Translations under genes and position numbers: made by a program
Shown: positions 1 to 64,000 of the stretch, piece by piece
How positions within the stretch are numbered: position 1 is the stretch's first letter
How the letters are laid out: the number at the start of each line of letters is the position of its first letter
Notes under the pieces: generated by a model
The model's input: the letters and a program-made list of their open reading frames with translations, nothing else
Databases searched by the model: none
What the model was told of the DNA's origin: nothing
Source of the DNA: an uncultured Gemmatimonadaceae bacterium
Lineage (GTDB): Bacteria > Gemmatimonadota > Gemmatimonadetes > Gemmatimonadales > Gemmatimonadaceae
Assembly: GCA_963781585.1 (NCBI GenBank)
Contig: CAWAGQ010000013.1
Coordinates: 224,001 to 288,000 of the forward strand
DNA: 64,000 nt
Direction of reading: 5' to 3'

Positions 1-3000
1 CGCTGTGAAGATCGCTGCGCGACAGGAGCTGCAGCTCCACGTCCATCATCTTCTTGTCCATGTCCTCGATGGACTTGAGCATGTCAGCCTTGCCGGCGTT
101 CGCCTTGCGCTGATCCTCGAGCTGCTTCCGCATCACCTCCAACCGGTTGATCATGTTGACGGCAGTATTCATGTCGTCGCGGATGCGGATCTGGGTCTTC
201 GTCGAAAGCGCGAGATCGGCGTCACTGGCAGTGATGGTTGGATCCCGGCGGATCTGGAGTCCCTGGGTGTACGGCTTGCCGTTGATGGTGAGCCGCACCG
301 AATAACGACCCGGGACGCCGAGCGGGCCGGTGCGCTCCGGGCCCTGGATGCCCCAGTGCTCGAGCGGACGGATTTCCTTGCCCTTGAAGCGGGGCTCGTC
401 CCAGATGTGCGGGTTGTCCGGCGGCGTAGTTCGCATCTCCACCTGCTTCGGGCCGTCGTACCGCACGTCCCAGACGACCCGATTGAGGCCGGTGCGCCCC
501 ATCTGATGGATGGTGCGGATAACCGTACCGGTCGAATCGGCGATCTCGATCGCGAGCGTGTCCTTCGGCGCCGCCTTGAGGTTGAAATTGATGTCGATGC
601 TCCCGCCGCGCGGCTCGCGGAAGCCGGTACGAGGCGCGAACAAGAAGGCGTCGGCGTCGGCCACTACCTTGTCCGCCTGCTCGAGCATCGTGATATCGCG
701 CAGCACGTACAAGCCGCGCCCGTACGTCGACACCACCACGTCATGATAGGGCTTGGAGACCACGATCCACGTAACCGGGGCCGCCGGGAGCCCGTTCTTG
801 AACTGGGTCCAGTGCCCACCGTCGTCCATGGAGTAGTAGAACGCGTTTCCCGTGCCGGCGAACAGCATCCCGCGCCGGTTGGGGTTCTCGGCGACGGACA
901 TCGCGTACGACAGCGGATGGTCCGACGGCAGCCCGTCGCTGATTCTCGTCCACGTCTTGCCGAAGTCGCTGGTCTTGTAGATGTACGGCTTCCGGTCGTC
1001 CATCAGGTGCAGATCGACGGTCACGTACGCCGTTGCGGGATCGAAATGCGACGGTTCGATCTTGCGCACCGTGCCCCAGGCCGGCAGCCCGGAAATATTC
1101 CTGCTGACGTTGGTCCAGTTGCCACCGCCGGTGGTCGTGTACCAGATCTGGCCGTCGTTGGTCCCGGCCCAGATCAGACCCTTCTGGGTGTCGGACGGGG
1201 CAATGGCGAAGACCACCTCGCCGTAGAATTGCCCGAGGTTGTCGCCCACGACGCCGCCTGACGAGACGATCCGGCTGGAGTCCCGGGTCGAGAGGTCGGG
1301 GCTCACCACGCTCCAGCTCTGCCCCGCGTTGGACGTTTTGAAGATGACCTGGCAGCCGTAGTAGACGGTATTGGGGTCGAACGGGTCGATCGCCAGCGGC
1401 GGAGTCCAGTGGCACCGGTATTTCGCGTCGTTAGGCGGCGAATCGAGTGTGTGGACCCAGGGACTCACCGAGCGGGCGCTGCCCAGTTTCGCGTCGTACC
1501 GCGTGACCTGGTTGCCGTAGCAGCTGGCCCAGATGATGTCGGGATTGCCGGGCGTGGGCAGCGTGAAGCCGGATTCACATCCGCCGAGTCCACCCTGCCA
1601 TGCGTTGCTCCCGCCCCGTCCGCCCCGTCCCCCCCCACCGAAGCGCCCGAAGCCTCCACCTCCGCCGCCCGGGCCCCCGTCCCCGCGGCCGCCGCGGGCC
1701 GGCGCCACGATGTTGGGCAGCGGCACCGGTTGGTTGCTGGGCCCGCGCATCGTGCCGTCATCCTGGCGGTTGCTGTAGATCCAGTACGGCACCTGGTCGT
1801 CGATCGCCACGTGATACATCTGGCCGATGGGGAGATCAATCGTGGTGAAGCTCTGGCCGTGATTTCGGGTATAGCCGGCTCCCGCGTCACCGGTCACCAC
1901 CCAGTGCGCCGGATTCCGCTGGTCCATCCAGATGTCGTGGCAGTCGCCACACCCCCCGCCGCTCACCGCGAACGTCACGCCGCCGTCGAGCGACCGGTGA
2001 AAGGTGCTGTTGGCCACGAGCACCTCGAGATCGTTCTGCGGGTTGACCTCGATGCGGATGTAGTAGCCGGCGCGGCCGATCAGCGTGCGATCCCAGCTCA
2101 CCACCTGCCACGCCTCGCCCCCGTCGTCGGAACGCCAGAGCGAGCCCTGATCCGGCGTCTGGATGAGCGCGTACACGCGCTTGGGATTCGACGGCGCCAC
2201 CGAAACGTCGATCTTTCCCACCGGCGACTTCGGGAGCCCCTTCTCGAGCCGCGTCCAGGTGGAGCCACTGTCGCGCGAGACGTACACGCCGCTCCCCGGC
2301 CCGCCGCTGAACATCGCCCAGGTGTGCATTACGACTTCCCACGTGCCCGCGAACAGGACTTTCGGGTCGCTGCGATCGATGGTCAGCCCGGAACATCCCG
2401 TGTTCTCGTTCACGAACAGCACGCGCTCCCAGGTTGTCCCGCCGTCCTTCGTGCGATACACGCCGCGTTCCTGCTGCGGACCCGTGGTACGACCCAGCGC
2501 ACACACGTAGACGATGTTGGGATTGGTCGGGTTGATGATGATGCGCCCGATGCGCCCAGTCTCGTCGAGCCCCATGTGCTTCCAGGTGGCGCCGGCGTCG
2601 GTGGACTTGTAGACCCCGTCTCCCATGACGTCGGCATCCCGAATCGCCCACGCCTCTCCCGTTCCGGCCCACACGATCCGCGGATTCGACGGCGCCACGG
2701 CGAGCGCGCCGATCGCCTGCACCGGCTCGTCGTCGAAGATGGGCGTGAAGGTCTCGGCGCCGTCGGTGGTCTTCCAGATGCCGCCCGATGCCGCGCCGAA
2801 GTAGTAGGTTGTCGTGTCACCGGGCACGCCGGCGACCGAGGCAACCCGCCCGGCCGGCGCCGGCCCGACGTACTGGAAACGGGGAGGCTGCGGCGGAGGC
2901 GCCGCCTGACCGCCACGACCCCCGCGCTGCGCGAGGGCGCTAGACGACAACCCGGAAACCAGGCAGAGCGCGCCGAGCGCGGCGCGGGTCGAGCAGCGTG

Positions 3001-3220: not shown

Positions 3221-4297
3221 TCAGGCCAGCTTTTGAGAGGTCGTACGGTCGAAAAGATGAATGGCAGCGGTCGGGACGCCCACCGGAACCACGTCGTCCG
3301 GCTGAACCGGTGGCTCCGACCGCGCAGCAGCGAGCAGCGCGTCCCCGTCCGGGAGCGCGAGATGCAGGATCTGTTCGTTTCCCAGCCGTTCCACGAGAGT
3401 GACGGACAGGCGGAGCGCCTCGGGTTCGTCGCTCAGCGTCAGGTCGTGAGGTCGGATTCCGAGCAGCACCGTCCGATCGCGGTGGGACGAAGCCGCCGGT
3501 GAGAGTGCGATGCTGAGGCCGCTTCCCTCGAAGCGGCAATGCTCCCCAGTGCAGCGGATCGTGCCGCGGAGGAGGTTCATGGCCGGGCTGCCGATGAAGG
3601 TAGCCACGAACGCGTTGGCCGGGCGGCGGTAGAGCGCGTCGGGGGTATCGACCTGCTGCAGGGCTCCGTCGCGAAGTACCGCCACCCGGTCGCCTAACGT
3701 CATGGCCTCCACCTGATCGTGGGTGACGTAGAGCATGGTGGCGGCAAGCCGGCGATGCAGCCGCGCCAACTCGGCGCGGGTACCGGCGCGGAGCTGGGCA
3801 TCGAGGTTGGAGAGCGGTTCGTCGAACAGAAACGCGCGTGGCTCGCGCACGATCGCGCGCCCCAGTGCCACCCGCTGCCGCTGCCCGCCGGAGAGTTGCG
3901 CCGGACGTCGCTCGAGAAGCTCCACGATGTCGAGCAGCCGCGCCACGTCGTCGACGCGGCGGGCGATCTCCGCTTGCGGGCGTCCGCGCACGCGGAGTCC
4001 GAAGCCGAGGTTCCGGCGAACCGTCATGTGCGGGTAGAGCGCGTAGCTCTGGAAGACCATCGCCACGCCCCGGTCCTGTGGCGGAATCGTGGTGACGTCC
4101 TGGTCGTCGAACAGGACGCGCCCCGCGGTGGGGGCTTCGAGCCCGGCGACGAGCCGCAGCGCCGTAGACTTGCCGCTGCCGGACGGTCCCACCAGAACCA
4201 GGAATTCGCCGTCGGATACGGTGAGATTCAGATCGTCCAGCGCCACCGGACCGGACGGAAAGCGCTTCGTCAGGTGTTCGAGCCGGATGCGAGCCAC
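3221..4297 (-). CDS. Carbohydrate ABC transporter ATP-binding subunit (MalK/SugC-like)
   Basis: Walker A GPSGSGKST, signature LSGGQRQR, FDEPLSNLD, VTHDQVEAMTLGDR, C-terminal TOBE-like region. Confidence 0.95.
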   Translation of the reverse strand: MARIRLEHLTKRFPSGPVALDDLNLTVSDGEFLVLVGPSGSGKSTALRLVAGLEAPTAGRVLFDDQDVTTIPPQDRGVAMVFQSYALYPHMTVRRNLGFGLRVRGRPQAEIARRVDDVARLLDIVELLERRPAQLSGGQRQRVALGRAIVREPRAFLFDEPLSNLDAQLRAGTRAELARLHRRLAATMLYVTHDQVEAMTLGDRVAVLRDGALQQVDTPDALYRRPANAFVATFIGSPAMNLLRGTIRCTGEHCRFEGSGLSIALSPAASSHRDRTVLLGIRPHDLTLSDEPEALRLSVTLVERLGNEQILHLALPDGDALLAAARSEPPVQPDDVVPVGVPTAAIHLFDRTTSQKLA

Positions 4298-4303: not shown

Positions 4304-5185
4304 CTAGCCCCGCACCGCGCCGGAGGTCAGCCCGCTCACGATCCGGCGCTGGAAGGCGAGCACGACGGCGGCCACCGGTACAGTCGCGACCACGGCCGCG
4401 GCGAGGATCTCGCCCCACGGCACCTGGTACTGGCCGCGGAAGAGCGCGATGGCCACCGGTACGGTCTGGTGTTCCGGCCCCAGTGTGAACGACAACGCGA
4501 ACAGGAACTCGTTCCAGCAGAACACGAAGACGAGAATGGCGGTGGTGGCCAGTCCAGGCACCGCCAGCGGGAGAATGACGCGCGTGAACGCCTGCCAGCG
4601 TGAGGCCCCGTCGATCAGGGCCGCCTCCTCGAGATCGCGCGGGAGCTGGCGGTAGAACGAGACCAGCAACCAGATGGCCAGCGGCATGGCGAAGGCGAGG
4701 TACGGCAGGATGAGTCCCGCGAAGGTGTCGATCAGCCGCAGGCTGCGCAGCAGCAGATAGAGCGGGCTCACGATCGCGATCTGGGGAAACATCGTCACCA
4801 CCAGCACGAAGGCAAGGATGGCGCGCCGCCGCCGCACCCGGAGCCGCGCCAGCGCGTAGGCCGCCAAACCGCCTAACGACACGCACAGCGCGGTGGTGCA
4901 CCCGGCCACCACCAGCGAGTTCCGCAGGGGGAGCCAGAAGTGGCGCTGGGTGAACACCGCGCGGTAGTGCGACAGCGTCAGGGCCCGCGGCCAGAGGGTG
5001 GGTTGGCGGAACAGCGCGGCCTCGGGCGTCACCGACGCCACCACCAGCCAGCAGGCGGGCAGGGCGATGGCGACCAGCACGATGCCGAGACCGGCGCTCC
5101 AGGCCCACCGGGGAAGCCGCGCGGTCACCCGGCGCCCGGCGTCAGGTGGGCGATCTTCCCTGCTCCGGGTGGACGACGCGGTCAC
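4304..5185 (-). CDS. Carbohydrate ABC transporter permease (MalG/SugB-like)
   Basis: EAA loop LEEAALIDGASRWQAF, WNEFLFAL, several TM helices. GTG start overlaps the upstream TGA; alternative start 5128. Confidence 0.92.
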   Translation of the reverse strand: MTASSTRSREDRPPDAGRRVTARLPRWAWSAGLGIVLVAIALPACWLVVASVTPEAALFRQPTLWPRALTLSHYRAVFTQRHFWLPLRNSLVVAGCTTALCVSLGGLAAYALARLRVRRRRAILAFVLVVTMFPQIAIVSPLYLLLRSLRLIDTFAGLILPYLAFAMPLAIWLLVSFYRQLPRDLEEAALIDGASRWQAFTRVILPLAVPGLATTAILVFVFCWNEFLFALSFTLGPEHQTVPVAIALFRGQYQVPWGEILAAAVVATVPVAAVVLAFQRRIVSGLTSGAVRG

Positions 5186-6159: not shown

Positions 6160-7497
<1,338 letters not shown>

Positions 7498-7505
<8 letters not shown>

Positions 7506-9399
7506 CCTTGAATACGATCATGGCCAGGGGTGGCAGCGTGACGATGATGCTGTTCAGATGTCCGTGCTGCCCCACCGGAACACTCTCCACGCCGCCCAGA
7601 TTGCCCTGGCCGCTCCCGCCGTAGAGCGGAGCGTCGCTGTTCAGAATCTCTTCCCAGTATCCGGCATGGGGGACGCCCACGCGGTAGTTGTGCCGGGGGA
7701 TGGGCGTGAAGTTGCAGCAGATGACGAGTGGTGGCGCCGGCGGATCGCCGCGCCGCAGCATCAGCAGGATGCTTTGCTGGGCGTCGTTGCAGTCGATCCA
7801 GGTGAATCCCGCGGGGTCGAAGTCGAGCTGGTAGAACGCCGGCTGGCCGCGATAGCTGGTGTTCAGGTCGCGCACCCAGCGACGGAGGCCCTGATGCATG
7901 GCCTCGTTCAGCAGGTGCCAGTCCAGGCTGCGGTCGTGGTTCCATTCGGCCACCTGGCCGAACTCGCCCCCCATGAACAGCAGCTTCTTGCCGGTCACCG
8001 CGTACTGGTAGCCGAACAGGAGCCGGAGGTTGGCGAACTTCTGCCAGCGGTCGCCGGGCATCTTGCCGAACAGCGATCCCTTGCCGTGTACCGCCTCGTC
8101 GTGCGAGAGGGGGAGGAGGAAGTTCTCGGAGAGCGCGTAGAGGCCGCGGAAGGTCAGGTTGGTGTGGTGGTGCTTGCGGTGCACGGGGTCACGCGAGAAA
8201 TAGTCCAGCGTGTCGTGCATCCAGCCCATGTCCCACTTCATCCCGAAGCCGAGGCCACCGAGGTAGGTGGGCCGCGACACCATGGGCCAGGCGGTCGATT
8301 CCTCGGCCACCGTGACCGCGCCCGGGCGTTCGCGGTAGATCTCCTCGTTCATCCGGCGCAGGAAGCCGATTGCGCCGAGGTTCTCCCGTCCCCCGAACTC
8401 GTTCGGGATCCACTCGCCCGGTTTGCGCGAGTAGTCCAGGTAGAGCATCGACGCGACCGCGTCCACCCGCAGGCCGTCGGCGTGATATTCGTCGAGCCAG
8501 AACAACGCGCTGCTGATCAGGAAGCTGCGGACTTCGTGCCGGTCATAGTTGAAGATCGCGCTGTTCCAGTCCGGGTGATGTCCCTTGCGCGGATCGCCGT
8601 GCTCGTAGAGATGCGTGCCGTCGAAGTACACCAGGCCGTGCTCGTCGGCAGGGAAGTGCGACGGCACCCAGTCGAGAATGACGCCGATCCCGTTCCGGTG
8701 CAGCACATCGATCAGATACATGAGATCCTGCGGCGTCCCGTAGCGGCTCGACGGGGCGAAGTAGCCGGTGGTCTGGTAGCCCCACGACCCGTAGAACGGG
8801 TGCTCCATGATCGGCAGGAGCTCCACGTGCGTGAACCCGGCGTCGAGGACGTAGTCCACCAGGCTGGTCGCGAGCTCGCGGTAGGTGAGCATCCGGTTCC
8901 CCTCTTCGGGGACGCGGCGCCACGAGCCGATGTGGACCTCGTAGATGGCCATCGGATCGCGCAGCGGCTGGCGCGACGACATCGCGTCACGCCACGCCTG
9001 ATCTCCCCATTCGTAGTCCAGTCCCCACACGATCGACGCCTGTCGCGGTGGTTCCTCGCAGCGGAAGGCGAGGGGATCCGCCTTGTCTACGCGGAAACGC
9101 CCCCGGCGCGACCGGATGTGGTATTTGTATGCCGCGCCGGCCGCGACCTCCGGAATGAATCCCTGCCAGACGCCGGAATCACCAGCCGACTCCAGCTGGT
9201 GGCTGTTGGTGTCCCAGCCGTTGAAGTCGCCCATCACCGAGACCGATTCGGCGTTAGGCGCCCAGACGCCGAAGGTGACACCACGCTGCCCGTTCCGCTG
9301 AGCGAAGTGCGCGCCCAGATGCCGGTAGAGCCGGAACTGGGTGCCCTCGCCGAACAGATAGAGGGCGTCGGCCGTGAGCAGGGAGTTCGCGCCGGCCAT
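7498..9399 (-). CDS. glgB: 1,4-alpha-glucan branching enzyme
   Basis: VWAPNA, IYEVHIGSW, EHPFYGSWGYQ, LDWVPSHFP, GLRVDAVASMLYLDYSR, AEESTAWP, LSHDEAVHGKGS. ATG at 9399 is coupled to the glgE stop (TGATG). Confidence 0.97.
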
Positions 9400-11462: not shown

Positions 11463-11942
11463 CGACCCATACCAGTGTCACTGCACACACCGAACTCAGC
11501 GTGCCCGCGGGGCGGGATGGTGCGAATGCGCAGGCCCTGATGGCAATCGGTGGCGACGAGCATGGGCAGTTCTCTCCCCCGGGAAAGCAGCGCGGCGGAC
11601 TCCGTACCGTTATCGCGTGCGTGAGGCCTTGTCAAGAAATCCCGGCCTGCGCGGACGAGGCCGGGTGGCGAGCGTCGCGGTCGGCGCTGCCGGCCAGAGA
11701 GCCTAACGAGCGCTGATCTGGCCGGTCGCGCACGGCCGAGTTGCGGAGTCCGGGGACCTTCGCAACGGAACGCGTTGTCTCACAAACCGGAAGCCGTAGA
11801 TCGGCGCGACCCGCCTGGTCCAGGGGGCCGGAACTCCGGCTCGGTTCCACGACTTCGTGCTCGTGGGTATCGTATTGTGGTGAAGGTCCGGAGTCCTCCG
11901 GACGCACGGGATACGGCGGGTGAGCCCGCCGGGGAGGGAAGT

Positions 11943-12721: not shown

Positions 12722-14176
12722 TCAGCGCCAGCGCCGCCACGATCCCCACGGAGCGCGCGCGGAGGCCAGCGCGGTAGCGCGCTGAGCCTCGACTGCTGGT
12801 CGGGCCGCGCCGAGCCACGGAGCGCGGCTCCGCACGCTCGCGACGTTCAGTGCGCCGAGCCCGCCGCGGCCGAGCCGCGACGCGCCGAAGCCGGAAGTCA
12901 GGAACCCCGGGGGAGTTCGCGCCAGCAACACACCGGCGTTAGGTGCGATGTCCGTCGGCCGGTTGTTGGAGCCGAAGACGGCCGAGAAGCTGAGATTCCC
13001 GTCATCGTTCCCTATCTTGAAGAACGGGATCCTGACGGTGACGGAGTCATCATCGTAGACGGTAGCCACCAGACCGAGGAAGCCGTCGAGTCCCCACATC
13101 TCGGCGGTCGCGTCGTCCTGGCTGAAGAAGCTGACCTCGTAGTCCACGCCCTGTGTGGCGGACCCCCCGAGGACGTTGACGCCGGGTGGGACGCCGGTGG
13201 CCTCGCTCTCGTCCACGTCGAAGTCCATGAACCCGTACAGCGAATTGGGCTGCGCCAGCGCCGACGCGACCACGGGCGCCGAGAAGTGCAGCGTGAGCAG
13301 CAGCCACCCCGGTACGTAACGCCCGGTGACCGCCAGGAGGTCGAGCGCGGGGGCGGATCCCGTCTGGGTGTTGGGCAGCGTGTCGTTGGCCGGATCGGTG
13401 ACCGCGAATCCCTCCTCTCCGGCTCCGATCGCGGTGCAGACAACATCGACCGACATGGGCAGCGCCTGACCGGCGGCAATCGACACTGGCCGCGTGGCGG
13501 AGCCGGTCAATGTGCAGTTCGGCTCCACGTCGAAGATTTCGAGCGTGTGATCGCCGGGCGGAATGTGGATGAGCCGGCGCGACGAGTTGCGGTCCAGCTC
13601 GAACACCAGACCCTGGTCGTAGGAGATCAGGTAGCCGTCGGGGTCGATGTCCTCACCGGTGGTGGTTGACGTAAACCTGACTTCGCCCGTCACCGGCGTG
13701 CACTGCACCGCGAAGTTCACATCGATCGTATCGTTGGCCACGATCGATACCTGACGAGAGTCCTGGCCTGATGAGCACGCCGAGTTGAGTCCCTGCAGGG
13801 CGACCGTATGGGTGCCGACCCGAAGGTTGTTGACGTGGAAGGTCGCGCCGTCGGCGCTCGACACGTCGAGCGGAGCGATGGTATCGATGGCGAGCTTGAA
13901 GGTGAACGTCGCAAGGTCGCCCGCCGTTTGCGTGGCGACGGAAATCGTCATCGATCCGTGCGCGGCCGGTCCGGTGCTGTCCGAGCACCCGGCCAGGATC
14001 CATGCGGCGGCGAGAAGCGGCCCGGCTGTCGCGGCGAGGTGCATGCTTCTGCAGCGTGCAACCGGTTGGCGAGCGGATGCGCCAATCCCGGCGTAGAGTG
14101 ACCGGCGGGCCGCACCGGAAGACGAGTGCGTACCATGCGGTAGCGCGGATTGCGACGATCGCGGACCGGACATCAT
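12722..14176 (-). CDS. Hypothetical lipoprotein with two Ig-like Cys-paired repeats
   Basis: Lipobox ILAGC-SDSTGP; two related beta-rich units (HTVALQGLNSACS...FAVQC and HTLEIFDVEPNCT...VDVVC); TTGEDIDPDGY. Start 14176 or 14044. Confidence 0.7.
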   Translation of the reverse strand: MMSGPRSSQSALPHGTHSSSGAARRSLYAGIGASARQPVARCRSMHLAATAGPLLAAAWILAGCSDSTGPAAHGSMTISVATQTAGDLATFTFKLAIDTIAPLDVSSADGATFHVNNLRVGTHTVALQGLNSACSSGQDSRQVSIVANDTIDVNFAVQCTPVTGEVRFTSTTTGEDIDPDGYLISYDQGLVFELDRNSSRRLIHIPPGDHTLEIFDVEPNCTLTGSATRPVSIAAGQALPMSVDVVCTAIGAGEEGFAVTDPANDTLPNTQTGSAPALDLLAVTGRYVPGWLLLTLHFSAPVVASALAQPNSLYGFMDFDVDESEATGVPPGVNVLGGSATQGVDYEVSFFSQDDATAEMWGLDGFLGLVATVYDDDSVTVRIPFFKIGNDDGNLSFSAVFGSNNRPTDIAPNAGVLLARTPPGFLTSGFGASRLGRGGLGALNVASVRSRAPWLGAARPAVEAQRATALASARAPWGSWRRWR

Positions 14177-20202: not shown

Positions 20203-20247
20203 GACAGACCTCGCGAGGGAGAAAGCCGGGCAGGAATGGGACCGCAC

Positions 20248-20294
20248 GGAAAATCGAGTCTGACGCCGCATCTCGGAAAATCGAGTCCGACCCC
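20248..20294 (-). repeat. Two copies of the GGGGTCAGACTCGATTTTCC-family repeat (27-bp period)
   Basis: GGAAAATCGAGTCTGACGCC at 20248-20267 and GGAAAATCGAGTCCGACCCC at 20275-20294. Confidence 0.85.
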
Positions 20295-42870: not shown

Positions 42871-44082
42871 CTATTCCTTCCTCACGTATCGCTTGAGCGC
42901 CCTCGGCCCGACCTCGGCGCCGTAGATGTGGCCCGCGGCATCCACGGCCACGCCCTCCGCCGCGCTCGTTCCCCGCGCGTTCTCGTTAGGATCGGGAATG
43001 AAGGCCGTGACCTTTCCGTCCTTCGCGCTCCCGATCCGGATGCCGCGCTTCCACGCCACGTGGGCGGAGTCCACCGACCCCGATTCCGAATCGGCCACGT
43101 AGATGTTGTCGTTCCGGTCGATGAAGATCCCGCTCGGCCGGCTGAATTGATACCAGGTATCCAGGAGCTTGCCATCCTGGGTGAAGATCTGAATCCGGTT
43201 GTTGCCGCGATCACCTACGAACAGACGTCCGCGCGAGTCCATGGCCAGGGCGTGCGGCTGGTCGAACTCGCCCGGCCCGGTGCCGAAGTGTCCCCAGGTC
43301 GCGACCAGCGCCCCGTCCTTCGAGAACCTGAGGACGCGGGCATTCGGCAGGCCGTTGGCCGCGCGCGACGAGTGCCCCTCGGCCACGTAGATGTCGCCGC
43401 TCGGCGCCACCAGAACGTCGTTAGGCTGCCAGAAATACCCCGGCTCCCGCGCGCCCCCGGGCGTGCCGAGTGTCCGGAGAAGCTTCCCGTCGGGGCTGAA
43501 CTCGAACACCTGATGACCCTTCGGCGCCTCCCGCGCGCCTTCGGCTGCGCCGGTGGCGCCCCCCCGGCCCGCGCCGCGACCGGCGCTGTCGGCGTTCCCC
43601 CTGCCGCCCGCGCGACCTGCACCGCCGCGTGCGGCACTGTCGCCGCCGGCACCACCACGGCCCGCGCCCCCGCCGCGCCGTCCGCCGCCTCCCCCGGTGC
43701 ACGCACAATCCGTCACCCACACATTCCCGGCGCGATCCACGAAAATGCCGTGCGGCGAAAGCAGCATCCCGGCGCCGAACGACGTCAGCAGATTGCCATC
43801 GGCGTCGAAATGGAGAATCGAGGGAAGGTCTGAGCCGGCGCAGCTGTTCGCGCCGCAGCGTTCGGCGACCCAGATGCTCTTGCCGTCGGGCGCGATATCG
43901 ACCGCGCTGGTCGAACCCCATGTTCGTCCCGCGGGAAGCTTCGCCCAGCCCTCGATGGTCTGGTACGGGTTGGGCAGATCGTTCGTGGGCTCGGGTGCGG
44001 CCTGGGCCCGGCCCGTTCGGTGCAGCGTCGCCAGGGTGGCGGCGAAGACGATCGCAGATGCGACGCGACGGGGATGCGACAT
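42871..44082 (-). CDS. Exported NHL-repeat beta-propeller (PAL-like family)
   Basis: [53 protein letters not shown]; long Gly/Arg insert. Confidence 0.82.
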
Positions 44083-44187
44083 CGAACGGACACTCCCTCG
44101 AAACGAGGTGAAGGCGATTCAAGACCTGCAATGTTCCACCCGCCCGCGGCCGTCACCCATTCAGGAGCAGGCGCGGGTGGCCCTGGC

Positions 44188-44268
44188 CCGACTCCCGCGT
44201 GCCGTCGGCCACCCGGGACCCCGAGAGTGCGCCATCCTCCGACTCCCGTGTGCCGCCGGCAGCCCGGG
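44188..44268. repeat. 30-bp imperfect direct repeat (26/30 identical, 51-bp period)
   Basis: CCGACTCCCGCGTGCCGTCGGCCACCCGGG at 44188 and CCGACTCCCGTGTGCCGCCGGCAGCCCGGG at 44239. Confidence 0.75.
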
Positions 44269-44448
44269 GGAACAAGGGCGAGAGCCGCGGTCGCTCAAGA
44301 CTGCGAGGGGTGCAGCTCCGGTGCAATGGTGCGGTCCAATCCGACCGCCGTCGAGGCCATGCTTGCCGTGCGCGCCTGTCGCCCCCACTATGAGCCCGTG
44401 CCGATTCGTGTTCGGTTCTCGCCCTCTCCCCACACGCTCGAGGCGACG

Positions 44449-52940: not shown

Positions 52941-54317
52941 CTAACGCCAGAGCACTTCCTCGCGTGTCACCCGGATGTTGTGGCGCGCGAGGGATGGGAA
53001 GACCATCTCGTACGGGACGTCGAGCGGGGTGAGTACCCCCCGCTTCGGCAGCGCGCCGCGGAGGATCAGTTGCGCTCCGAGGCTCATGGTGTAGCCAACC
53101 GTCCGCTGCATCGACGTGAACCCGGTACGAAAATCCCGGCGGTCCACCAGGTCGTAAACCACCCTGACGCGTTCGGCGCCGCCGGTTCGCCGATCCGGCG
53201 ATCCCACTTGGTCGGCGGAGGAGTTTGGGGGTCCGCGACCCGGCCCCTTCGAAGAGCGCGTTCCCCGTACGTCGACGCGAACAAAGGTCAGATCCGCATC
53301 GCCCTCCCCGTACCGGAACTGCGGCTGCGATGCGAGGACGGCGGCGACGAATTCCGGTGGTGAGACCTGGGCGTCGCCCACGCTGACCGGCCGTTCCTCC
53401 AGAAATCCGCTCTTCACCATCGTGTCCCAGAATGCGCAGTGCCCGGGAAGCCGACCGGTGTATCGTCCCATCTCGCGCACCTGGTCGCGGATCCCGAACA
53501 GCTCCGCGTAGTGCACGGCGTCGCCATTGGGATAGCACTCGAGCGGCGATTCGATCGCCGGAACGTCGATTCGGTGCACGTGCTGCGGCTCGAAAATGCG
53601 TGTGGCATCGATGGTCTCGACCTCGCCGCCCGCGATGAGGCGCGCGGGCCTGTGGTAGGACCTCATGACCCCCAGCGCCGACCACGAGAACCTGTACTTC
53701 AGCGGGTTGTCTCGTGCGCCCGGCGCCGGAATGCCGGCCCCGTAGGCATGGAACTCGTGCACCGCGTCGAGTTCGCTCAGCGCCTGCGCGCCCAGCACCA
53801 GGTCGAGACCCGGATCCAGCCCGAATTCGGTGAGGATGGCGATCCCCTTCTGCTTCGCCACGCGATCGATGTCGCGCACCGCGGCGCGTGCCGCGGCGAT
53901 CTTCGCCGGATCGGGTTCGCCCGGTGAAACGAAGTACATGCTGCTCACGAGGCTCACGCCGCACTCGGCGGCCAGGCGGCCGATCGGGAGCGCGAAGTGG
54001 CCGGGAAGCGCTTCCACGACGACATCGGCATCGTGCATCAGCGCGGCCACGGCTACTTCGTCGCGCGCGTCGACAATGCGACCCGACACGCGGTCGGGTG
54101 GGTATGCGTGGAGCAGCTCCCGGAGCGACGGATCGGCGTCGGCCACGACCACGCGTGCGACGTCGGCCTCACGCGCCAGATCGTGGAGCGCGGCCTTGCC
54201 CTGCATGCCCGCGCCCAGCAGCAGCACCCGGGCGCCTCGCCCGACCGGCGCCACGTCGGTGTCCGGCCTGCCTAACGTGCCGCGACCACGGGAGCGGTGC
54301 TCGCGAACTTCGTCCAC
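52941..54317 (-). CDS. Saccharopine-dehydrogenase / lysine-6-dehydrogenase-family NAD(P)-dependent oxidoreductase
   Basis: Rossmann VLLLGAGMQG, EFGLDPGLD, NPLKYRFSWS, SMQRTVG. Start uncertain because it overlaps the upstream gene. Confidence 0.85.
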   Translation of the reverse strand: MDEVREHRSRGRGTLGRPDTDVAPVGRGARVLLLGAGMQGKAALHDLAREADVARVVVADADPSLRELLHAYPPDRVSGRIVDARDEVAVAALMHDADVVVEALPGHFALPIGRLAAECGVSLVSSMYFVSPGEPDPAKIAAARAAVRDIDRVAKQKGIAILTEFGLDPGLDLVLGAQALSELDAVHEFHAYGAGIPAPGARDNPLKYRFSWSALGVMRSYHRPARLIAGGEVETIDATRIFEPQHVHRIDVPAIESPLECYPNGDAVHYAELFGIRDQVREMGRYTGRLPGHCAFWDTMVKSGFLEERPVSVGDAQVSPPEFVAAVLASQPQFRYGEGDADLTFVRVDVRGTRSSKGPGRGPPNSSADQVGSPDRRTGGAERVRVVYDLVDRRDFRTGFTSMQRTVGYTMSLGAQLILRGALPKRGVLTPLDVPYEMVFPSLARHNIRVTREEVLWR

Positions 54318-55699: not shown

Positions 55700-55782
55700 G
55701 ATGTCCTCCCCAGTGCCGGAACGGGTCATGGGTCCACCGCTTGAGAATAGTGCGGCGGCCCGGGAACGCGAGAGCCGCCGGG

Positions 55783-55860
55783 ATAATTGGGGTCAGACGC
55801 GAATGCCGGAAATTCGCGGCTGCCCCCTGATTCTCGGATTTCGAGTCTGACCCCAACTAT
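55783..55860. repeat. Inverted pair of the GGGGTCAGACTCGA-family repeat (REP/MITE-like, 78 bp)
   Basis: ATAATTGGGGTCAGACGCGAA ... TTCGAGTCTGACCCCAACTAT. Confidence 0.85.
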
Positions 55861-57535: not shown

Positions 57536-60337
57536 CTACCCGCCAGTGCGGGCCGGATCCTTGTGCACGACGAGCGTCGCGGTGCGCTCCTCGCCGTCGA
57601 CGTTGAGCCTCACCGTGTAGATCCCCGGCGGCACGAGTGGCATCGCGTTACCGCGCCCCCCACCGCCTCCACCAGAACCCGCACCACCGGCGCGGCCGCC
57701 ACCTCCCGCACCCGCGCCGCGTCCACGAGCCACGGCCGCCGAATCGCGCGGCGGCGGCGCGCGGAGATTCCACCACACCCGGTTGATGCCCGCCTCCGCG
57801 GGACCGGCAAGCGTCCGGATTGTCGTTCCCTTGTAATCATCGATCGTCAGGCGCGCGCTGTCCCGCGACGACGCGCTCACGTAGTAGCTGATCGCCGCGC
57901 CATAGGGCGAATTGTGTCCCGCGTGCGACGGCGTATCGAACTCGGTCGCAAAACTCTCGGTGGTGGTCGGCGGTCGGAGCTCGTACTCGTAGGCCGGCCT
58001 CGGATCGAACAGGTGCGCGCGTTCGGCGAGCACCTGCGGCGTGAGTTGCTGCAAGGGCGCGATGTCGTCGAGAATCCAGAACCCGCGGCCCCAGGTCGCG
58101 ACCACCAGGTCGTCGAAGTCCTCCTGCACGACAATCCACGCGATGGGGGTGTGTGGCAGGTTGTTCTGGAGTGATAGCCAGTGCGCGCCCTCGTCCACGG
58201 TCACGTACAGCCCGTTTTCGGTGCCGAGGTAGAGCATGCCCGCCCGGCGCGGGTCTTCCGTGACCACGCGCGCGTACGCGAAGACGTCCTGTGGGATCCC
58301 CGCGCCGATCGACTTCCACGTCTGTCCATAATCCTTCGTCACGTACACGTAGGTGGTGTTGTCCACGGCGCGGTGGCGATCGACCGAGAGGTACGCGGTG
58401 CCCGCGGCATGGCGCGATGGCTCCACGCACCAAACGAACCCCCAGGGCGGGAGACCCGCGATGTTCGCCGTGACATTGGTCCAATGCCCGCCTCCGTCAC
58501 GCGTCACGCTCACCACGCCGTCGTTGCTCCCGGTCCAGATCACGCCCCGCTCGATAGGCGATTCGGAGATCGCGATCAGCGTGCCCGGGACATCCTGTGT
58601 CTCGGGCCAGATTCCGGGAGGGACAATCTGTTTGCTCTTGTCGTTGGTGGTGAGGTCGGGGGAGATCTGCCGCCATGTCTGGCCGCCGTCGTCGCTCTCG
58701 TGCACGAACTGGCTGCCCGCGTAGATGCGGTGCGGATCGTGGGGCGACATCGCGAGTGGGATGGCCCAGTTGCGCCGGAACGGCCGATCAGCGACCGACG
58801 CGCCGCGTCCGCCACCGCCACCGCCACCGCCACCGCCACCGCCACCACCGCCCCCGCGCCCCGATGGCCACGGCCCAGTGCCGAGGTTGAGGCCCGTGCG
58901 CATATCCATGTGCTCGACGTTGTTCGACGTACTGGCCCACACGATGTTGTCGTCCAATGCGTCGGGGATGACCCATCCGCTTTCCGCGCCGATCGTCCAG
59001 ACCCACAGGTCGGGCGGAATGATGCCGGTCCCGTCCGGCAGCGACGGCACACCGCTGCTCTGGATCAGGCTGTTGCTCGGGCCGCGATACGAGGGGCCGT
59101 CCTGGCGGCTCCCGTACACGTTGTACGGATTGCGGCGATCCACCGCCACGCGGTTCACCTGCGCGTTAGGCAGGGAGATGTGGAACCACGAGCGTCCGCG
59201 GTTGGACGAGATGTTCACGTACCGGTCGTTGGCCACCAGGATGCGATTGGCGTTGGTGGGATCGAACCAGACGTCGTGGTGGTCGGGGAAGTTCTCGGGG
59301 ATGATCGTGGTTGTCTTGCCGCCGTCGGTCGAGTGATAGAGAGCCTGGGCGAGGAAGTAGACGTCGTCGGCATTGTCGGGCGAGACGCCCAGCCGACCGA
59401 AGTAGCGCGCGCGGCGGTTGATTGCCGCATCCTTGCTTGCGACGACCCAGTTGTCACCGCCGTCGTCCGAGCGCCAGAGGTTGCCCTGGTCCGCTGTTTC
59501 CACCAACGCATACACCCGCTTCGCATTGCTCGGCGCCATGCCGATCGTGATGCGGCCGAGCGGCGGGTGGGGAAGACCGTGTCCTTCGAGGCGACGCCAG
59601 GTGGTACCGCCGTCGCGCGACATGTAGATGCCGCTCCCCGGGCCACCGCTCTCGCTGTACCACGAATGAATGACCAGTTGCCAGGTGGCCGCGAAGACCA
59701 CCTGCGGGTTCACCGGGTCCACGATGACGTCGATCGCTCCCGTGTTCTCGTCGACGAACAGCACGCGCTTCCACGTGCGGCCACCGTCGGTAGTGCGGAA
59801 TACGCCGCGCTGTTGCTGAGGGCCGTAGCAATGGCCCATGGCAGCGACGAAGACGGTGTTGGCGTTGCGCGGATCGATCACCACACGACCGATACGGCCC
59901 GTGCTGTCGAGCCCCATATGCGTCCACGTCTTTCCCGCGTCGGTGGATCGGTACACACCGTTACCGATTTCGATGTTCGGGCGGATGTTCGGATCACCGG
60001 TGCCGGCCCACACTACGCCCGGATTCGAGCGCGAAACCGCGAGCGCACCGATCGACGCCACGATCTGTCCGTCGAAGACCGGTCGCCAGTGGAGACCGGC
60101 ATCGTCGCTCTTGAAGATCCCGCCCGACGGCGTCCCGGCGTACACCACGTTCGGATCGCCCGCCACGCCGGCGACCGCGTTCACGCGATTGCCGGGTGGG
60201 CCGATGTAGCGATACTGGAGCGCCTGGTACGCAGCCGGGCTGAGTGACTGGGCCGCGACGGTGGTGGCGACAAGCGTGGCGCAGATGACTGCCAGCGATG
60301 TGGTCGTCGTTCGAATGCCGTGGGATGAGCGCGCCAT
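57536..60337 (-). CDS. VPS10/sortilin-like BNR-repeat exported protein
   Basis: YRYIGPPGNRV, GGIFKSDDAG, multiple SxDGGxTW boxes, ISPDLTTND, LYLGTE, ATWGRGFWILDD. Confidence 0.9.
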   Translation of the reverse strand: MARSSHGIRTTTTSLAVICATLVATTVAAQSLSPAAYQALQYRYIGPPGNRVNAVAGVAGDPNVVYAGTPSGGIFKSDDAGLHWRPVFDGQIVASIGALAVSRSNPGVVWAGTGDPNIRPNIEIGNGVYRSTDAGKTWTHMGLDSTGRIGRVVIDPRNANTVFVAAMGHCYGPQQQRGVFRTTDGGRTWKRVLFVDENTGAIDVIVDPVNPQVVFAATWQLVIHSWYSESGGPGSGIYMSRDGGTTWRRLEGHGLPHPPLGRITIGMAPSNAKRVYALVETADQGNLWRSDDGGDNWVVASKDAAINRRARYFGRLGVSPDNADDVYFLAQALYHSTDGGKTTTIIPENFPDHHDVWFDPTNANRILVANDRYVNISSNRGRSWFHISLPNAQVNRVAVDRRNPYNVYGSRQDGPSYRGPSNSLIQSSGVPSLPDGTGIIPPDLWVWTIGAESGWVIPDALDDNIVWASTSNNVEHMDMRTGLNLGTGPWPSGRGGGGGGGGGGGGGGGGRGASVADRPFRRNWAIPLAMSPHDPHRIYAGSQFVHESDDGGQTWRQISPDLTTNDKSKQIVPPGIWPETQDVPGTLIAISESPIERGVIWTGSNDGVVSVTRDGGGHWTNVTANIAGLPPWGFVWCVEPSRHAAGTAYLSVDRHRAVDNTTYVYVTKDYGQTWKSIGAGIPQDVFAYARVVTEDPRRAGMLYLGTENGLYVTVDEGAHWLSLQNNLPHTPIAWIVVQEDFDDLVVATWGRGFWILDDIAPLQQLTPQVLAERAHLFDPRPAYEYELRPPTTTESFATEFDTPSHAGHNSPYGAAISYYVSASSRDSARLTIDDYKGTTIRTLAGPAEAGINRVWWNLRAPPPRDSAAVARGRGAGAGGGGRAGGAGSGGGGGGRGNAMPLVPPGIYTVRLNVDGEERTATLVVHKDPARTGG
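58811..58846. repeat. (GCCACC)6 microsatellite encoding part of a poly-Gly run
   Basis: Read directly inside the VPS10-like gene. Confidence 0.9.
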
Positions 60338-61046: not shown

Positions 61047-64000
61047 CTACGGCACGACCCGGATCGGCGGCGCGAGAATCCTCGGCATTCCCGCGAGCAG
61101 TGTGTTGATCTTCGCGATCCGGCCGGCCACCAGTGCATCAAGCCGCGCCTGCGCCTGATCGGTCTCCGTCTTGAGCTCACCGGCGCGCAAGGTTTCGCCC
61201 GCAGTCGGCGCGCGGGCCCCACGCGACGCCATACCCGTCACGGACTGCACCTCCTCGCGCAGCCGCGGATACTGCCGGTAGCCAAGCCCCGCCAAGGGAC
61301 GCGCGAGCACCGAATCGCGGAAGTGTGTGAGGTCGCCCAAGGCACCGGTGATCTCGGTGAGTGCCGCCGGAATCGACTTGTTGGCGCTGTCGGGTGCGCT
61401 CTCCAGCGCCGCCTGCGTTGCCGTGAGCTGGCGCGCGAGATCGTCGATCGCGTTGATGATGTTGTTCACGCGGACACCGAGATCCTGCAGCTGGCGCGCG
61501 GCCGCAATCTGCTGGGTCAGCGCCGCGGGCGTGGTCTCGAAGCGCGGATCGCCCTCGACGGTCAGGTCTTTCGAGATCCGTTGCGATCCGGCGGCGAGCG
61601 TGACGGTGTAATCGCCCGGGAGCACGTCGATGCCGCCCCCGCCGCGTCCACCCCGCCCACCGCGCCCGCCGGGTGCCGGCTCGGCTTCGCCGCCTCCCGC
61701 GGCCCCACCCCTGCCAGCTCCCGCGGCACCACCGGCGCCGGCCGCACGGCCCGCCGGCGCACCGGCACCGCCGCCGCGCGCCCCGCGGCCGCCGCGACCT
61801 CCGCGGCCGCCCGCCGCGACAACCGGGGCTTCGTAACTGAGGTTCCACGTCACCCGATTCAGCCCGGCCTGGCCGGGGGCGTTCAGACGATCCACGACGC
61901 GCCCGCCGTTCTTCTCCGCCACCGTGATCGACGCGCGCTGCGGCGACTTCAGGTAATAGGTGATGATCGCGCCGTTGGGCGGATTCTCGCCGCGCCACAC
62001 CTTCTGTCCGGCGTTGCCCTCGCGATTCCACAGATTCCAGTTCGTCGCGGTCCGCAGGTCGAACAACGTCGCTTCGCTCGCCACTGCCGCATTCAGATTC
62101 TGGAGCCACGCGATGTCGTCCAGGATGTAGAGACCGCGTCCGTGCGTCGCCATCAGCAGGTCGTTCTCGCGCGGGTGCACCTGGAGGTCCCGCACCTGGA
62201 GCACCGGCAGGTCACCGCGCAGCGAGTACCAGTGCGCGCCGCGGTCCCATGACGCCCAGGCGCCCATCTCGGTGCCGATGTACAGCAGGTTCCGGTTTCG
62301 GCGATCTTCCCGCACCACGTGGACCCACGCCGTCGACTGCGGCAGGTCGCCCATGATTGGTTTCCACGTCCGGCCGAAATCCGTCGTCATGTACGCGTAC
62401 GGCGAATAGTCGTCGTCCTGGTGGTGATCGGCGGCGACGTATGCCGTGCCCGGGTCAAAGTGCGATGCCTCGACGGTCGGGATCCAGGCGTTCGGCTTCA
62501 GCCCCGGCACGTTGGTGAACACGTTCGACCAGGTCTTCCCCCCGTCACGCGTCACCTGGACGTTGCCGTCGTCGGTGCCCACCCAGATGAGATTCGGGTC
62601 GAGATCGGAGACGGCAATCGAGATGATCGTGCAGTAGAACTCGGCCGCCGTGTTGTCCACGACGATCGGACCGCCTGACGACTGCTGCTTGGCCGGATCG
62701 TTCGTGGTGAGGTCGGGCGAGATCACCTGCCACGACTGGCCGCGATTGGTGCTCTTGAACAGCACGTTGCCGCCGAAGTACACGGCGCCCGGTTCCTTCA
62801 CCGACACCGCGATCGGGGAATTCCAGTTGAAGCGGTACTTGTGGCCGATCATCGCGTCGCCTACGGAACCGACGCGATTGGGATACGGGTAGATCTGCTT
62901 CTGGATGCCCGACCGCAGGTCGGTCACGTAGATCATGCCGCCCTGCGCGTCGGAGTACACGACGTTGGAATCGGCGAGGTCCGTAACGCCCTCGAAGCCG
63001 TCGCCGCCCGAGATCGTGAACCAGTCGGTCTTGCCGATGCCGCCGTACACGCCGAGGCTTGGCCCGCACCACGTGCCGTTGTCCTGCAGCCCACCGCAGA
63101 CCATGTACGGCTTCCGCATGTCGTAGTTGATGTGGTAGAACTGGGTGAACGGGAACGTGTTTTCCACCTCCCACGTGCGGCCGCCGTCGAAACTCTTCTG
63201 CCACCCGCCGTCGGATCCCTCGAGGATGCGCTTCGGGTCGGCGGGATCGATCCACATCGCCTGGTGGTCGCCGTGGACGCCCTGCGCGATCGTCCGGAAG
63301 TTCGCGCCGCCGTCCTCCGACAGGTTCAGGGAGCCCGACAGGGAGAAGATCCGGTTCGCGTTGGAGGGGTCGACGCGGATGTCGGAGTAGTAGAACGGCC
63401 GGAAGTTGATGTTGGGGTCGCGGTTGACCGTGCGCCACGCCTCGCCGGCGTCGTCGCTGCGCCAGAGCTCCCCTTCGGTCTTCGTCTCGCTCACCACGTA
63501 GACCACGTCGGGGTCGCTCGCGGCGACCGCAATGCCGATACGGTCCATGTCGCCGCGGGGAAGGCCGCGCCGCACGTTCGCGCCCGAGAGTCGCTCCCAG
63601 CTGTCGCCGCCGTTCACCGACTTGTAGACCGCCGTGTTGCCGCCGCCCGACTCCAGGTGCCAGGCCCAGCGGCGGTAGGTGTACATGCCGGCGTAAACGA
63701 TGTTGAAGTTGTGCGGATCGACGGCCACGTCGGAGCAGGCGGTCTGCGGGTCGACGTACAGGACCTTCTTCCACGTCCGGCCGCCGTCGGTCGTCTTGAA
63801 GACGCCGCGCTGCTCGTTAGGTCCCCACTCCCGGCCGAGCCCGCAGACGTAGACCTGCTCCGGGTCGCGGGGATTCACCACGATCCGCGCGATCTTGTCG
63901 GACTGCTCGAGACCGATCTTCGTCCAGTGGTCGCCGGCATCGATCGACTTGTACATGCCGTTGCCGACCGAGGCGTTGTTGCGCGGGTTCTCTTCGCCGG
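61047..64000 (-). CDS. VPS10/sortilin-like BNR-repeat protein (5' end outside the window)
   Basis: Frame is open to the window edge (GEENPRNNASVGNGMYKS); HGDHQAMWIDP, GGLQDNG, YRFNWNSP, ATHGRGLYILDD; long GGRGG insert. Confidence 0.9.
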   Translation of the reverse strand, partial: GEENPRNNASVGNGMYKSIDAGDHWTKIGLEQSDKIARIVVNPRDPEQVYVCGLGREWGPNEQRGVFKTTDGGRTWKKVLYVDPQTACSDVAVDPHNFNIVYAGMYTYRRWAWHLESGGGNTAVYKSVNGGDSWERLSGANVRRGLPRGDMDRIGIAVAASDPDVVYVVSETKTEGELWRSDDAGEAWRTVNRDPNINFRPFYYSDIRVDPSNANRIFSLSGSLNLSEDGGANFRTIAQGVHGDHQAMWIDPADPKRILEGSDGGWQKSFDGGRTWEVENTFPFTQFYHINYDMRKPYMVCGGLQDNGTWCGPSLGVYGGIGKTDWFTISGGDGFEGVTDLADSNVVYSDAQGGMIYVTDLRSGIQKQIYPYPNRVGSVGDAMIGHKYRFNWNSPIAVSVKEPGAVYFGGNVLFKSTNRGQSWQVISPDLTTNDPAKQQSSGGPIVVDNTAAEFYCTIISIAVSDLDPNLIWVGTDDGNVQVTRDGGKTWSNVFTNVPGLKPNAWIPTVEASHFDPGTAYVAADHHQDDDYSPYAYMTTDFGRTWKPIMGDLPQSTAWVHVVREDRRNRNLLYIGTEMGAWASWDRGAHWYSLRGDLPVLQVRDLQVHPRENDLLMATHGRGLYILDDIAWLQNLNAAVASEATLFDLRTATNWNLWNREGNAGQKVWRGENPPNGAIITYYLKSPQRASITVAEKNGGRVVDRLNAPGQAGLNRVTWNLSYEAPVVAAGGRGGRGGRGARGGGAGAPAGRAAGAGGAAGAGRGGAAGGGEAEPAPGGRGGRGGRGGGGIDVLPGDYTVTLAAGSQRISKDLTVEGDPRFETTPAALTQQIAAARQLQDLGVRVNNIINAIDDLARQLTATQAALESAPDSANKSIPAALTEITGALGDLTHFRDSVLARPLAGLGYRQYPRLREEVQSVTGMASRGARAPTAGETLRAGELKTETDQAQARLDALVAGRIAKINTLLAGMPRILAPPIRVVP

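Follow-up and report, generated by a model that had tools for sequence, protein, structure and literature searches.

We show here that a non-palindromic octamer, CGTTAGGC (reverse complement GCCTAACG), is dispersed in 18 exact copies, nine on each strand, through a 64,000-nucleotide stretch of genomic DNA from an uncultured Gemmatimonadaceae bacterium (assembly GCA_963781585.1, contig CAWAGQ010000013.1, positions 224,001 to 288,000; hereafter the window), and that the same word recurs on both megaplasmids of a cultured relative, Gemmatirosa kalamazoonensis KBS708. That CGTTAGGC is a DNA-level word under biased fixation we regard as almost certain, and we suggest tentatively, by analogy with the DNA uptake sequences (DUS) and uptake signal sequences (USS) of other bacteria, that it may function as a self tag of the uptake-signal type. 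What is new is a genome-wide iterated word in a new phylum, with a combination of traits that fully matches no known family.

The number of copies far exceeds expectation. Base composition predicts 2.4 copies in the window (the first-pass annotation, in which the octamer was picked out by eye, had estimated two to three), an order-3 Markov model predicts 0.50, and dinucleotide shuffles of the window (n=100) average 1.01 copies with a highest count of 5, none of the 100 reaching 18. CGTTAGGC ranks first among the 8-mers of the window, and the next-ranked over-represented 8-mers overlap it. Eight further sites are one-mismatch variants (five CGTTAGGT, two GGTTAGGC and one CGTTAGGA). Every exact and variant site named in the first-pass annotation is present, and its 16 to 10 division between the strands for exact and variant copies is correctly counted, yet does not differ significantly from equality (binomial p 0.33). 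The density is 1 copy per 3.6 kb (0.28 per kb). Because the 20 bases on each side of the window copies are mutually unrelated, we take CGTTAGGC to be a dispersed word and not a repeat family, and no longer element was found around these copies. Copies 9252 and 45933 do share 28 nt at 86% identity (9235-9262 and 45930-45957); this is a protein-level likeness and not a repeat, since the GlgB-like and PD40/amidohydrolase genes both encode A-P-N-A-x-x-V-S-V there, which may be a small domain motif shared by the two proteins. A reading of the word as a repeat of the repetitive extragenic palindromic (REP) or miniature inverted-repeat transposable element type was likewise rejected, given the unrelated flanks, the location of most copies in genes and a TTA core that is mostly unpaired.

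With window genes called by GC content at third codon positions (GC3) and Pfam, 16 of the 18 exact copies lie wholly inside coding sequences, in agreement with the earlier statement that nearly all do; six are read in the sense direction as xCG-TTA-GGC and ten antisense as G-CCT-AAC-G. The sense copies occur at 3692..3699 (-; ACG TTA GGC, ABC ATPase gene 3221-4297(-)), 4871..4878 (-; TCG TTA GGC, ABC permease gene 4304-5185(-), the frame being that given by Pfam and GC3), 25751..25758 (+; GCG TTA GGC, RND membrane-fusion gene 25621-26868(+)), 27997..28004 (+; GCG TTA GGC, encoding ALG, AcrB-like gene 26865-29999(+)), 38927..38934 (-; TCG TTA GGC, aminotransferase gene 38702-39931(-)) and 41047..41054 (-; ACG TTA GGC, molybdopterin-binding subunit gene 39967-42216(-)). 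The antisense copies lie in two BNR/Sortilin-like genes (1429..1436, +, CCG CCT AAC GAC, gene 2-3112(-); 59164..59171, +, CTG CCT AAC GCG, gene 57536-60337(-)), two NHL-repeat genes (31635..31642, +, CGG CCT AAC GAC, gene 31267-32478(-); 43419..43426, +, CAG CCT AAC GAC, gene 42871-44082(-)), a GlgB-like gene (9252..9259, +, GCG CCT AAC GCC, gene 7498-9597(-)), an M14-peptidase-like gene (19014..19021, +, TCG CCT AAC GAG, gene 17056-20481(-)), the AcrB-like gene already named (26975..26982, -, CTG CCT AAC GTG), a PQQ-dehydrogenase gene (38241..38248, -, GTG CCT AAC GGG, gene 36316-38652(+)), the molybdopterin-binding subunit gene (42066..42073, +, GCG CCT AAC GCG) and a PD40/amidohydrolase gene (45933..45940, -, GCG CCT AAC GCG, gene 44020-47880(+)). 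Outside these, the copy at 11701..11708 (-) is intergenic, between divergent GlgE-like(-) and MsrA(+) genes, and in the copy at 54270..54277 (-) the TAG is the stop codon of the open reading frame (ORF) 54272-55729(-), which ends ...GCA CGT TAG; this copy is upstream of the probable start of the saccharopine-dehydrogenase gene.

The variants follow the same pattern. CGTTAGGT is found in the sense direction at 6546..6553 (-; GCG TTA GGT, solute-binding-protein gene), 46382..46389 (+; TCG TTA GGT) and 22965..22972 (+; CTC GTT AGG TGC, GH3 gene), and antisense at 12937..12944 (+; GCA CCT AAC GCC) and 63815..63822 (+; GGA CCT AAC GAG); CGTTAGGA is antisense at 42984..42991 (+; GAT CCT AAC GAG). 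The two GGTTAGGC variants, both antisense (32322..32329, +, CTG CCT AAC CAT; 33762..33769, +, ATG CCT AAC CAC), occupy corresponding positions of adjacent NHL-repeat paralogues (31267-32478 and 32629-34032; 300 nt at 74% identity). Of the three codon readings proposed in the first-pass annotation, xCG-TTA-GGC and CCT-AAC are thus those of the exact copies, whereas GTT-AGG occurs in no exact copy and only in variant 22965.

The codons used to spell the word are ones that these genes otherwise avoid, as had been noted before. Leu is mostly encoded by CTG (756) and CTC (664) and Pro by CCG (737) and CCC (340); the window contains only 11 TTA codons, six of them in CG-TTA-GGC and two in CG-TTA-GGT (together 8 of 11 in the word or CGTTAGGT), with three elsewhere, and ten of the 73 CCT codons stand in G-CCT-AAC-G. 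When synonymous codons were shuffled within genes (n=1000), the shuffle preserving the amino-acid sequence, the mean was 0.67 copies and the maximum 4, compared with the 16 observed, so that an enrichment of about 24-fold stands. In all 16 coding copies word positions 2, 5 and 8 fall at wobble positions, and the alternative open phase is empty (0 of 44 opportunities, compared with 16 of 69 in the phase used; p 2e-4). Where synonymous codons could spell the word, it is present at 10 of 23 x-P-N-[VADEG] and at 6 of 46 [STPA]-L-G peptides. Since three of the four motif peptides that were checked are the family consensus, the word is written mostly by synonymous codons onto pre-existing peptides: LPNV at site 26975 is the consensus (43 of 67 homologues), TLG at 41047 and xPNA at 42066 occur in 101 and 107, respectively, of 120 sequences aligned, a number that counts the window protein, and the fourth, ALG at 27997, belongs to a family in which 40 of 73 homologues have x-L-G, LLG being commonest (27) and the leading A uncommon (6 of 73). 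The base changes required, as we infer them, are G to T or C to T at Pro and C to T plus C/G to A at Leu. As the changes from preferred codons are heterogeneous (CCG/CCC to CCT; CTC/CTG to TTA), no single mutation hotspot writes the word.

These results bear on the alternative that no DNA-level signal exists, the surplus of CGTTAGGC following instead from the usage of amino acids, dipeptides or codon pairs, from a mutation hotspot in a particular sequence context or from repeated gene families. The copies do stand at two common dipeptides, Leu-Gly and Pro-Asn, and several paralogous families are present, the variants at 32322 and 33762 being an example. However, besides the codon shuffle, the unrelated flanks and the several kinds of base change required, the sense and antisense peptides differ while the DNA word is identical, and non-coding copies exist (in excess on plasmid 2 of G. 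kalamazoonensis, see below). Moreover, the top 8-mer in 39 of 40 unrelated control loci of at least 18 kb has a z of 4.6-7.8, compared with 19.5 in the window. We consider this alternative scarcely credible. Since two unrelated peptide readings, non-coding DNA and a stop codon all give one word, the signal lies in the DNA.

Further evidence comes from G. kalamazoonensis KBS708, for which plasmid 2 was analysed whole (1,040,503 bases) and plasmid 1 in one 50-kb stretch; gene calls on plasmid 2 are heuristic (GC3 periodicity), and its coding and non-coding fractions are approximate. In 50-kb stretches the word is again the top 8-mer (40 copies on plasmid 1, 32 on plasmid 2), and plasmid 2 as a whole carries 701 copies (335 on the plus and 366 on the minus strand), that is 0.67 per kb or 1 per 1.5 kb. 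The order-3 expectation is 32, falling to 0.6-1.7 when all GTTAGG is masked from the background, and the enrichment over the masked background is more than 400-fold. Word position 1 is C in 701 cases, T in 85, G in 12 and A in 8, position 8 is strictly C, and a purine follows the word in 84% (A 0.38, background 0.14), in coding and non-coding copies alike; the full form in Gemmatirosa is YGTTAGGC-R, followed by a C/G preference at the next two positions. GTTAGG is rare outside the full word (815 GTTAGG, of which 806 are GTTAGGC). One-off variants of the transition type are 2.5- to 5-fold in excess (CGTCAGGC 157, CGTTGGGC 150). T at position 8, found in 5 of 23 cases in the window, occurs in 0 of 701 on plasmid 2 (p 2e-8), a small dialect difference between the two genomes.

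In confidently called ORFs of plasmid 2, 252 of 275 TTA codons (92%) are NG-TTA-GGC and 23 lie outside the word. Eligible positions are occupied at 208 of 827 [STPA]-L-G and 107 of 227 x-P-N-[VADEG] peptides (25-47%). In addition, copies are over-represented in plasmid 2 DNA without codon periodicity (235 of 701, compared with 1034 of 5000 random positions; odds ratio 1.93, p 2e-13), and within this DNA convergent 3'/3' spacers (25% against 15%) are preferred to divergent spacers (10% against 19%; odds ratio 3.1, p 5e-6). A promoter-like reading (CGTT as the -10 element of extracytoplasmic function (ECF) sigma factors) was rejected, as no upstream position is conserved and the word lies inside genes in both orientations. 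A structured-element reading was rejected too: intergenic copies fold with a free energy only slightly lower than background (-34.1 and -31.9 kcal/mol, p 0.0015), and the word core is mostly unpaired.

The positions of the word are not conserved. In six window/Gemmatirosa gene pairs (49-68% identity; the pairs may be paralogues) the 8 window sites and the 14 Gemmatirosa sites never coincide at an aligned codon, not even at an L-G or P-N peptide that the two proteins have in common. It is therefore the density on the two strands that is maintained, not any fixed position, and the word is strand-symmetric, or nearly so on plasmid 2. Considering that window copies run both with transcription (6 sense) and against it (10 antisense) and that the word recurs at non-homologous positions in a second genome, we exclude protein-level and RNA-level explanations; these two observations, with the codon shuffle, support the original proposal of a DNA-level signal independent of coding. 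Neither of the two outcomes that the first-pass annotation had named as counting against this proposal was obtained, the codon shuffle leaving a strong enrichment and TTA being almost absent elsewhere.

New copies arise through point mutations that the encoded protein can accept, namely in Leu-Gly and Pro-Asn dipeptides and stop codons, and in 3' intergenic DNA; they are retained despite codon preference and genome GC pressure, and they turn over while the density stays. The retaining force, we suggest, acts on the finished word. The most likely force would be molecular drive from sequence-biased acquisition of same-species DNA, in which word-bearing fragments, their tag read by a putative receptor, would be preferentially taken up or recombined and replace word-less alleles. 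Biased fixation is favoured because thousands of copies make the benefit of a single copy minute and because no single hotspot fits; simulation work is said to show that drive alone suffices. Among its possible sources an uptake tag is placed first, since sequence-biased uptake is the only experimentally established source of asymmetric, strand-symmetric, clade-specific, hyper-abundant dialect words.

Several features of the word are shared with uptake sequences, among them near strand symmetry, the excess in DNA without codon periodicity and there in convergent spacers, the even spacing on plasmid 2, the surplus of transition-type variants and the lack of conserved positions. The USS of Pasteurellaceae consists of a 9-bp core plus flanks and is regularly spaced in Haemophilus influenzae; CGTTAGGC resembles it in having many copies inside genes in protein-tolerated frames, common one-off variants and, on plasmid 2, regular spacing, and differs in that no AT-rich flanking segments are seen, only the purine at the ninth position and the C/G preference at the next two. 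Like the DUS of Neisseriaceae (10-12 bp, bound by the minor pilin ComP), the word is non-palindromic and hyper-abundant on both strands, and it shares with DUS, whose dialects, location in permissive regions and receptor ComP are the subject of PMC3630211, the use of permissive coding positions and of intergenic DNA near gene ends as well as a clade-restricted distribution with small dialect differences. It is unlike DUS in being shorter (8-9 specified bases), in its lower density in the window (0.28 per kb), in its phylum and in almost never forming inverted terminator pairs. An association with terminators and a reading-frame bias are attributed to both DUS and USS in a preprint (bioRxiv 10.1101/2025.10.24.684340).

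A number of observations weigh against an uptake tag. With 8-9 specified bases the word is shorter than DUS or USS; the inverted-repeat terminator pairs that are their hallmark are absent from the window, and of the 46 close pairs (<120 bp) of plasmid 2, which are more often direct (28) than inverted (18), the 40 inspected include only 3 tight hairpins. The spacing of the 18 window copies shows no significant regularity (coefficient of variation (CV) 0.74, P 0.12), nor is there an intergenic excess in the window, where 2 of 18 copies lie outside coding sequences and 8.7% of the DNA is non-coding. No report of natural transformability or of a sequence-specific DNA receptor in Gemmatimonadota was found in the literature, and the 64-kb window contains no gene for a DNA receptor or uptake machinery. 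Every supporting pattern is also expected from other mechanisms of biased fixation, and HIP1, the highly iterated palindrome (HIP) of cyanobacteria, illustrates that a word can become hyper-abundant with no uptake role proven for it (PMC4390886).

One such mechanism is a Chi-like role, in which an end-processing helicase-nuclease (RecBCD, AddAB or AdnAB type) would read the 8-mer on single-stranded DNA and switch from degradation to recombination, protecting self DNA and favouring word-bearing incoming linear DNA. Like Chi, CGTTAGGC is a lineage-specific, non-palindromic 8-mer specified at every position and spaced at a few kilobases, its density in the window and in Gemmatirosa being of the order of that of Escherichia coli Chi (about 1 per 4.6 kb). 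In each half of plasmid 2 the G-rich strand also carries a weak but significant surplus of copies (384 of 701, 54.8%, p 0.013), and both orientations would be required if breaks have two ends or incoming fragments are linear. Known Chi sites, however, show a replication-oriented polarity of about 75%, under which 384 of 701 has a P of 3e-31, and the 9/9 division in the window is 13-fold likelier under a polarity of 0.5 than of 0.75. Further, the Chi excess is modest and built from frequent codons, unlike an enrichment of more than 400-fold that uses the rarest ones, and an excess in 3' intergenic DNA is no known trait of Chi. No RecBCD/AddAB-type gene is present in the 64-kb window. A Chi-like function is, in our opinion, distinctly unlikely. 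The cumulative word count follows GC skew only weakly (191 plus- and 240 minus-strand copies up to 650 kb, then 144 and 126), and on this ground we also rejected a reading as FtsK-orienting polar sequences (KOPS) or another architecture-imparting skewed octamer. In the same region of plasmid 2 (about 600-700 kb, at the boundary between sections L087 and L088) there is a sharp switch in GC skew, from -0.038 to +0.036, at the cumulative minimum, which may be the origin or terminus of the megaplasmid.

A second mechanism is a ratchet of the type proposed by Elhai for HIPs, in which methylation would be coupled to repair (PMC4390886). Applied to CGTTAGGC, an orphan cytosine-5 methyltransferase acting on the word core, together with a methylation-sensitive bias of mismatch repair that preserves mutations towards the word and eliminates those away from it, would let the word accumulate without a function of its own. 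HIP1 and the alternate HIPs occur at about 1 copy per kb within and between genes, override codon preference and deviate mainly at their first and last positions, and the function of HIP1 is debated, the repair ratchet being one model for it (PMC4390886). CGTTAGGC shares these features: it too is an octamer that overrides codon usage and reaches about 1 per kb, both within genes and between them, and its tolerated deviations are at the word ends (position 8 in the window, position 1 in Gemmatirosa). The near confinement of GTTAGG to the full word, a density that saturates at about 1 per 1.5 kb with regular spacing, and a sporadic distribution among Gemmatimonadales would also fit a ratchet.

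Other observations argue against it. The word is not its own reverse complement, unlike every HIP, and belongs to another phylum; a contiguous asymmetric specificity of 8-9 bp would be unusual for an enzyme that makes 5-methylcytosine (m5C); and the HIP model is itself unproven. Nor are the abundant potential precursors depleted on plasmid 2, where CGTTCGGC (336, with 265-311 expected) and CGTGAGGC (113, with 92-94 expected) stand about at expectation. The single-molecule real-time (SMRT) methylome of KBS708, which bears on the methylation check proposed in the first-pass annotation, comprises only three N6-methyladenine (m6A) motifs, RGATCY, ATGCAC and CCAGN7TCA (PMC3974934), and the word is not among them. 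Its absence from the SMRT motifs excludes m6A and N4-methylcytosine (m4C) at the word in this relative. Such SMRT data are no reliable guide to m5C, the modification on which the ratchet would depend. We regard such a ratchet as improbable. HIP1 itself reportedly raises transformation efficiency in a cyanobacterium, according to a 2024 preprint; if it does so, the uptake and HIP categories may not be exclusive.

A third possibility is that the word is a directly selected binding site. The protein bound would be an abundant one of the chromosome (a nucleoid-associated protein, a condensin loader or a segregation factor, for instance) that requires a site every 1-3 kb on each replicon. On plasmid 2 the gaps are more even than random (CV 0.909, compared with 0.998 simulated; P 0.0015), and gaps of 100-500 bp number 107 against 154.6 simulated, none of 2000 simulations giving so low a count. 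Besides this regularity, a protein site would fit the sharply defined core with its ninth-position purine preference in coding and non-coding DNA, the short tandem and inverted clusters in plasmid 2 intergenic DNA (such as 3-5 copies repeating every 12 or 15 bp) and the presence of the word on the chromosome-derived window and both megaplasmids. Against it, the minute benefit of each site contrasts with the displacement of preferred codons at a quarter to nearly half of eligible positions, for which drive would be a better fit; no site is conserved between homologous genes; the nucleoid proteins known to us bind degenerate AT-rich DNA and not exact 8-mers; and no candidate protein was identified. 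A binding site of this sort is therefore very unlikely. Of the genome-scale features that the first-pass annotation had thought worth pursuing, even spacing and a weak strand skew are thus found on plasmid 2, whereas depletion in islands is not shown: the eight largest word-free gaps measure 6.3-10.2 kb, the two largest (10.2 and 9.2 kb) are within the exponential range for a mean gap of 1.48 kb, and the seven of these gaps that fall within a single sequence tile have a GC content of 0.69-0.73 and ORFs with the high GC3 typical of the genome.

Mechanisms of undescribed kinds together deserve about a quarter of our belief. In particular, the word could be the trace of an undescribed genome-wide self-marking system whose machinery is neither a pilus-type receptor, a Chi-reading nuclease nor a methyltransferase, and which would recognise an asymmetric 9-mer on every replicon across a Gemmatimonadaceae clade, biasing repair or recombination until TTA is almost word-only; we hold this specific form to be unlikely.

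With respect to distribution, relatives were sampled via the AcrB-like protein, giving at least 73 loci (1,222,159 bases) from many phyla with few Gemmatimonadales. Among the matches listed, the best has 69% identity, and all 73 loci together contain 7 copies of the word; the 11 Gemmatimonadales/Gemmatimonadaceae loci among them (155,799 bases) contain none, where 44 would be expected at the density of the window. The survey of related genomes thus gave a divided answer, the word being abundant on plasmid 2 of G. kalamazoonensis and absent from these 11 loci. It is restricted to a clade, one Gemmatimonadaceae lineage, in which two carrier genomes were seen. The listed AcrB-like relatives come from Acidobacteriota, Verrucomicrobiota, Nitrospirota, Methylomirabilota and others (51-69% identity). 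Sequence comparison suggests that the RND efflux operon at 23986-29999 is horizontally mobile; it nevertheless holds three copies of the word.

Searches of full texts under either spelling found no earlier description of the word, the supplementary tables of k-mer surveys lying outside their scope; the literature search likewise agrees with the opinion that the word has no described function in this lineage, and the Gemmatirosa genome paper is silent about it (PMC3974934). Very few lineages are, to our knowledge, known to have codon-overriding hyper-abundant words (the DUS of Neisseriaceae, the USS of Pasteurellaceae and the HIPs of cyanobacteria), and each of these words has been informative on how bacteria recognise their own DNA; CGTTAGGC would be a further independent case, in an abundant and barely cultured soil phylum. 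Since the culturable type strain G. kalamazoonensis KBS708 carries the word, its mechanism is directly testable. The word could be of use in genetic tools for Gemmatimonadota (added to donor DNA) and as a lineage marker for metagenome binning, and it quantifies a DNA-level push on codon usage, nine-tenths of the TTA codons of a 1-Mb replicon lying within it.

Finally, we record a number of features that lie beside the word. The fortieth control locus (L013, a Thermoanaerobaculia metagenome-assembled genome) has a top 8-mer z of 15.9; its top words, such as TCTTGCAA (20 copies) and AAGAGACT (11), suggest that a repeat array flanks the AcrB homologue. On plasmid 2 GGACTGAA/TTCAGTCC occurs in 76 copies (5.8 expected), in a hairpin GGGACTGAAGAAGGAC...GTCCTTCTTCAGTCC (for example at about 660,150-660,200), and GACAGGATGA in 12 copies in the 50 kb of plasmid 1; both look like REP-type elements. 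The palindrome GATCGCGATC has 5 sites in the window (10 when both strands are counted), about 1 being expected, and AACGCGTT likewise has 5; their excess may be a codon effect, and the relative G. kalamazoonensis methylates RGATCY.

The gene content of the window includes Sortilin/BNR proteins, NHL and PD40 propellers and a TonB receptor with a carboxypeptidase-regulatory domain. Three Sortilin/BNR propeller paralogues are found, at 2-3112, 57536-60337 and 61047-63998. For one window protein the named best matches are 'Gemmatimonadaceae bacterium' at 73-76% identity, the nearest protein overall having 79%, which puts the window within or close to Gemmatimonadaceae, with no closer relative among the proteins compared. 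A second dispersed element of the window, TCGAGTCTGACCCCA(A/T)TT, occurs as four direct copies 27-40 bp apart at 34005-34122 (upstream of an NHL-repeat gene and a HupE-like gene), as an inverted pair at 55784-55856 (3' of an ECF sigma-factor gene and 5' of a phospholipase-B-like gene) and as two degenerate copies at 20256-20294 (near the 5' end of the M14-peptidase-like gene), and it looks like an operator or promoter element common to several secreted-protein genes. Degenerate short tandem repeats of the type TGGCCTCTGACCTATG lie at 31173-31267, in the spacer directly upstream of the NHL-repeat gene 31267-32478, and five overlapping copies of a GC-rich, codon-phased 18-bp tandem repeat lie at 35806-35924, in a region of short ORFs between the HupE-like and PQQ-dehydrogenase genes.

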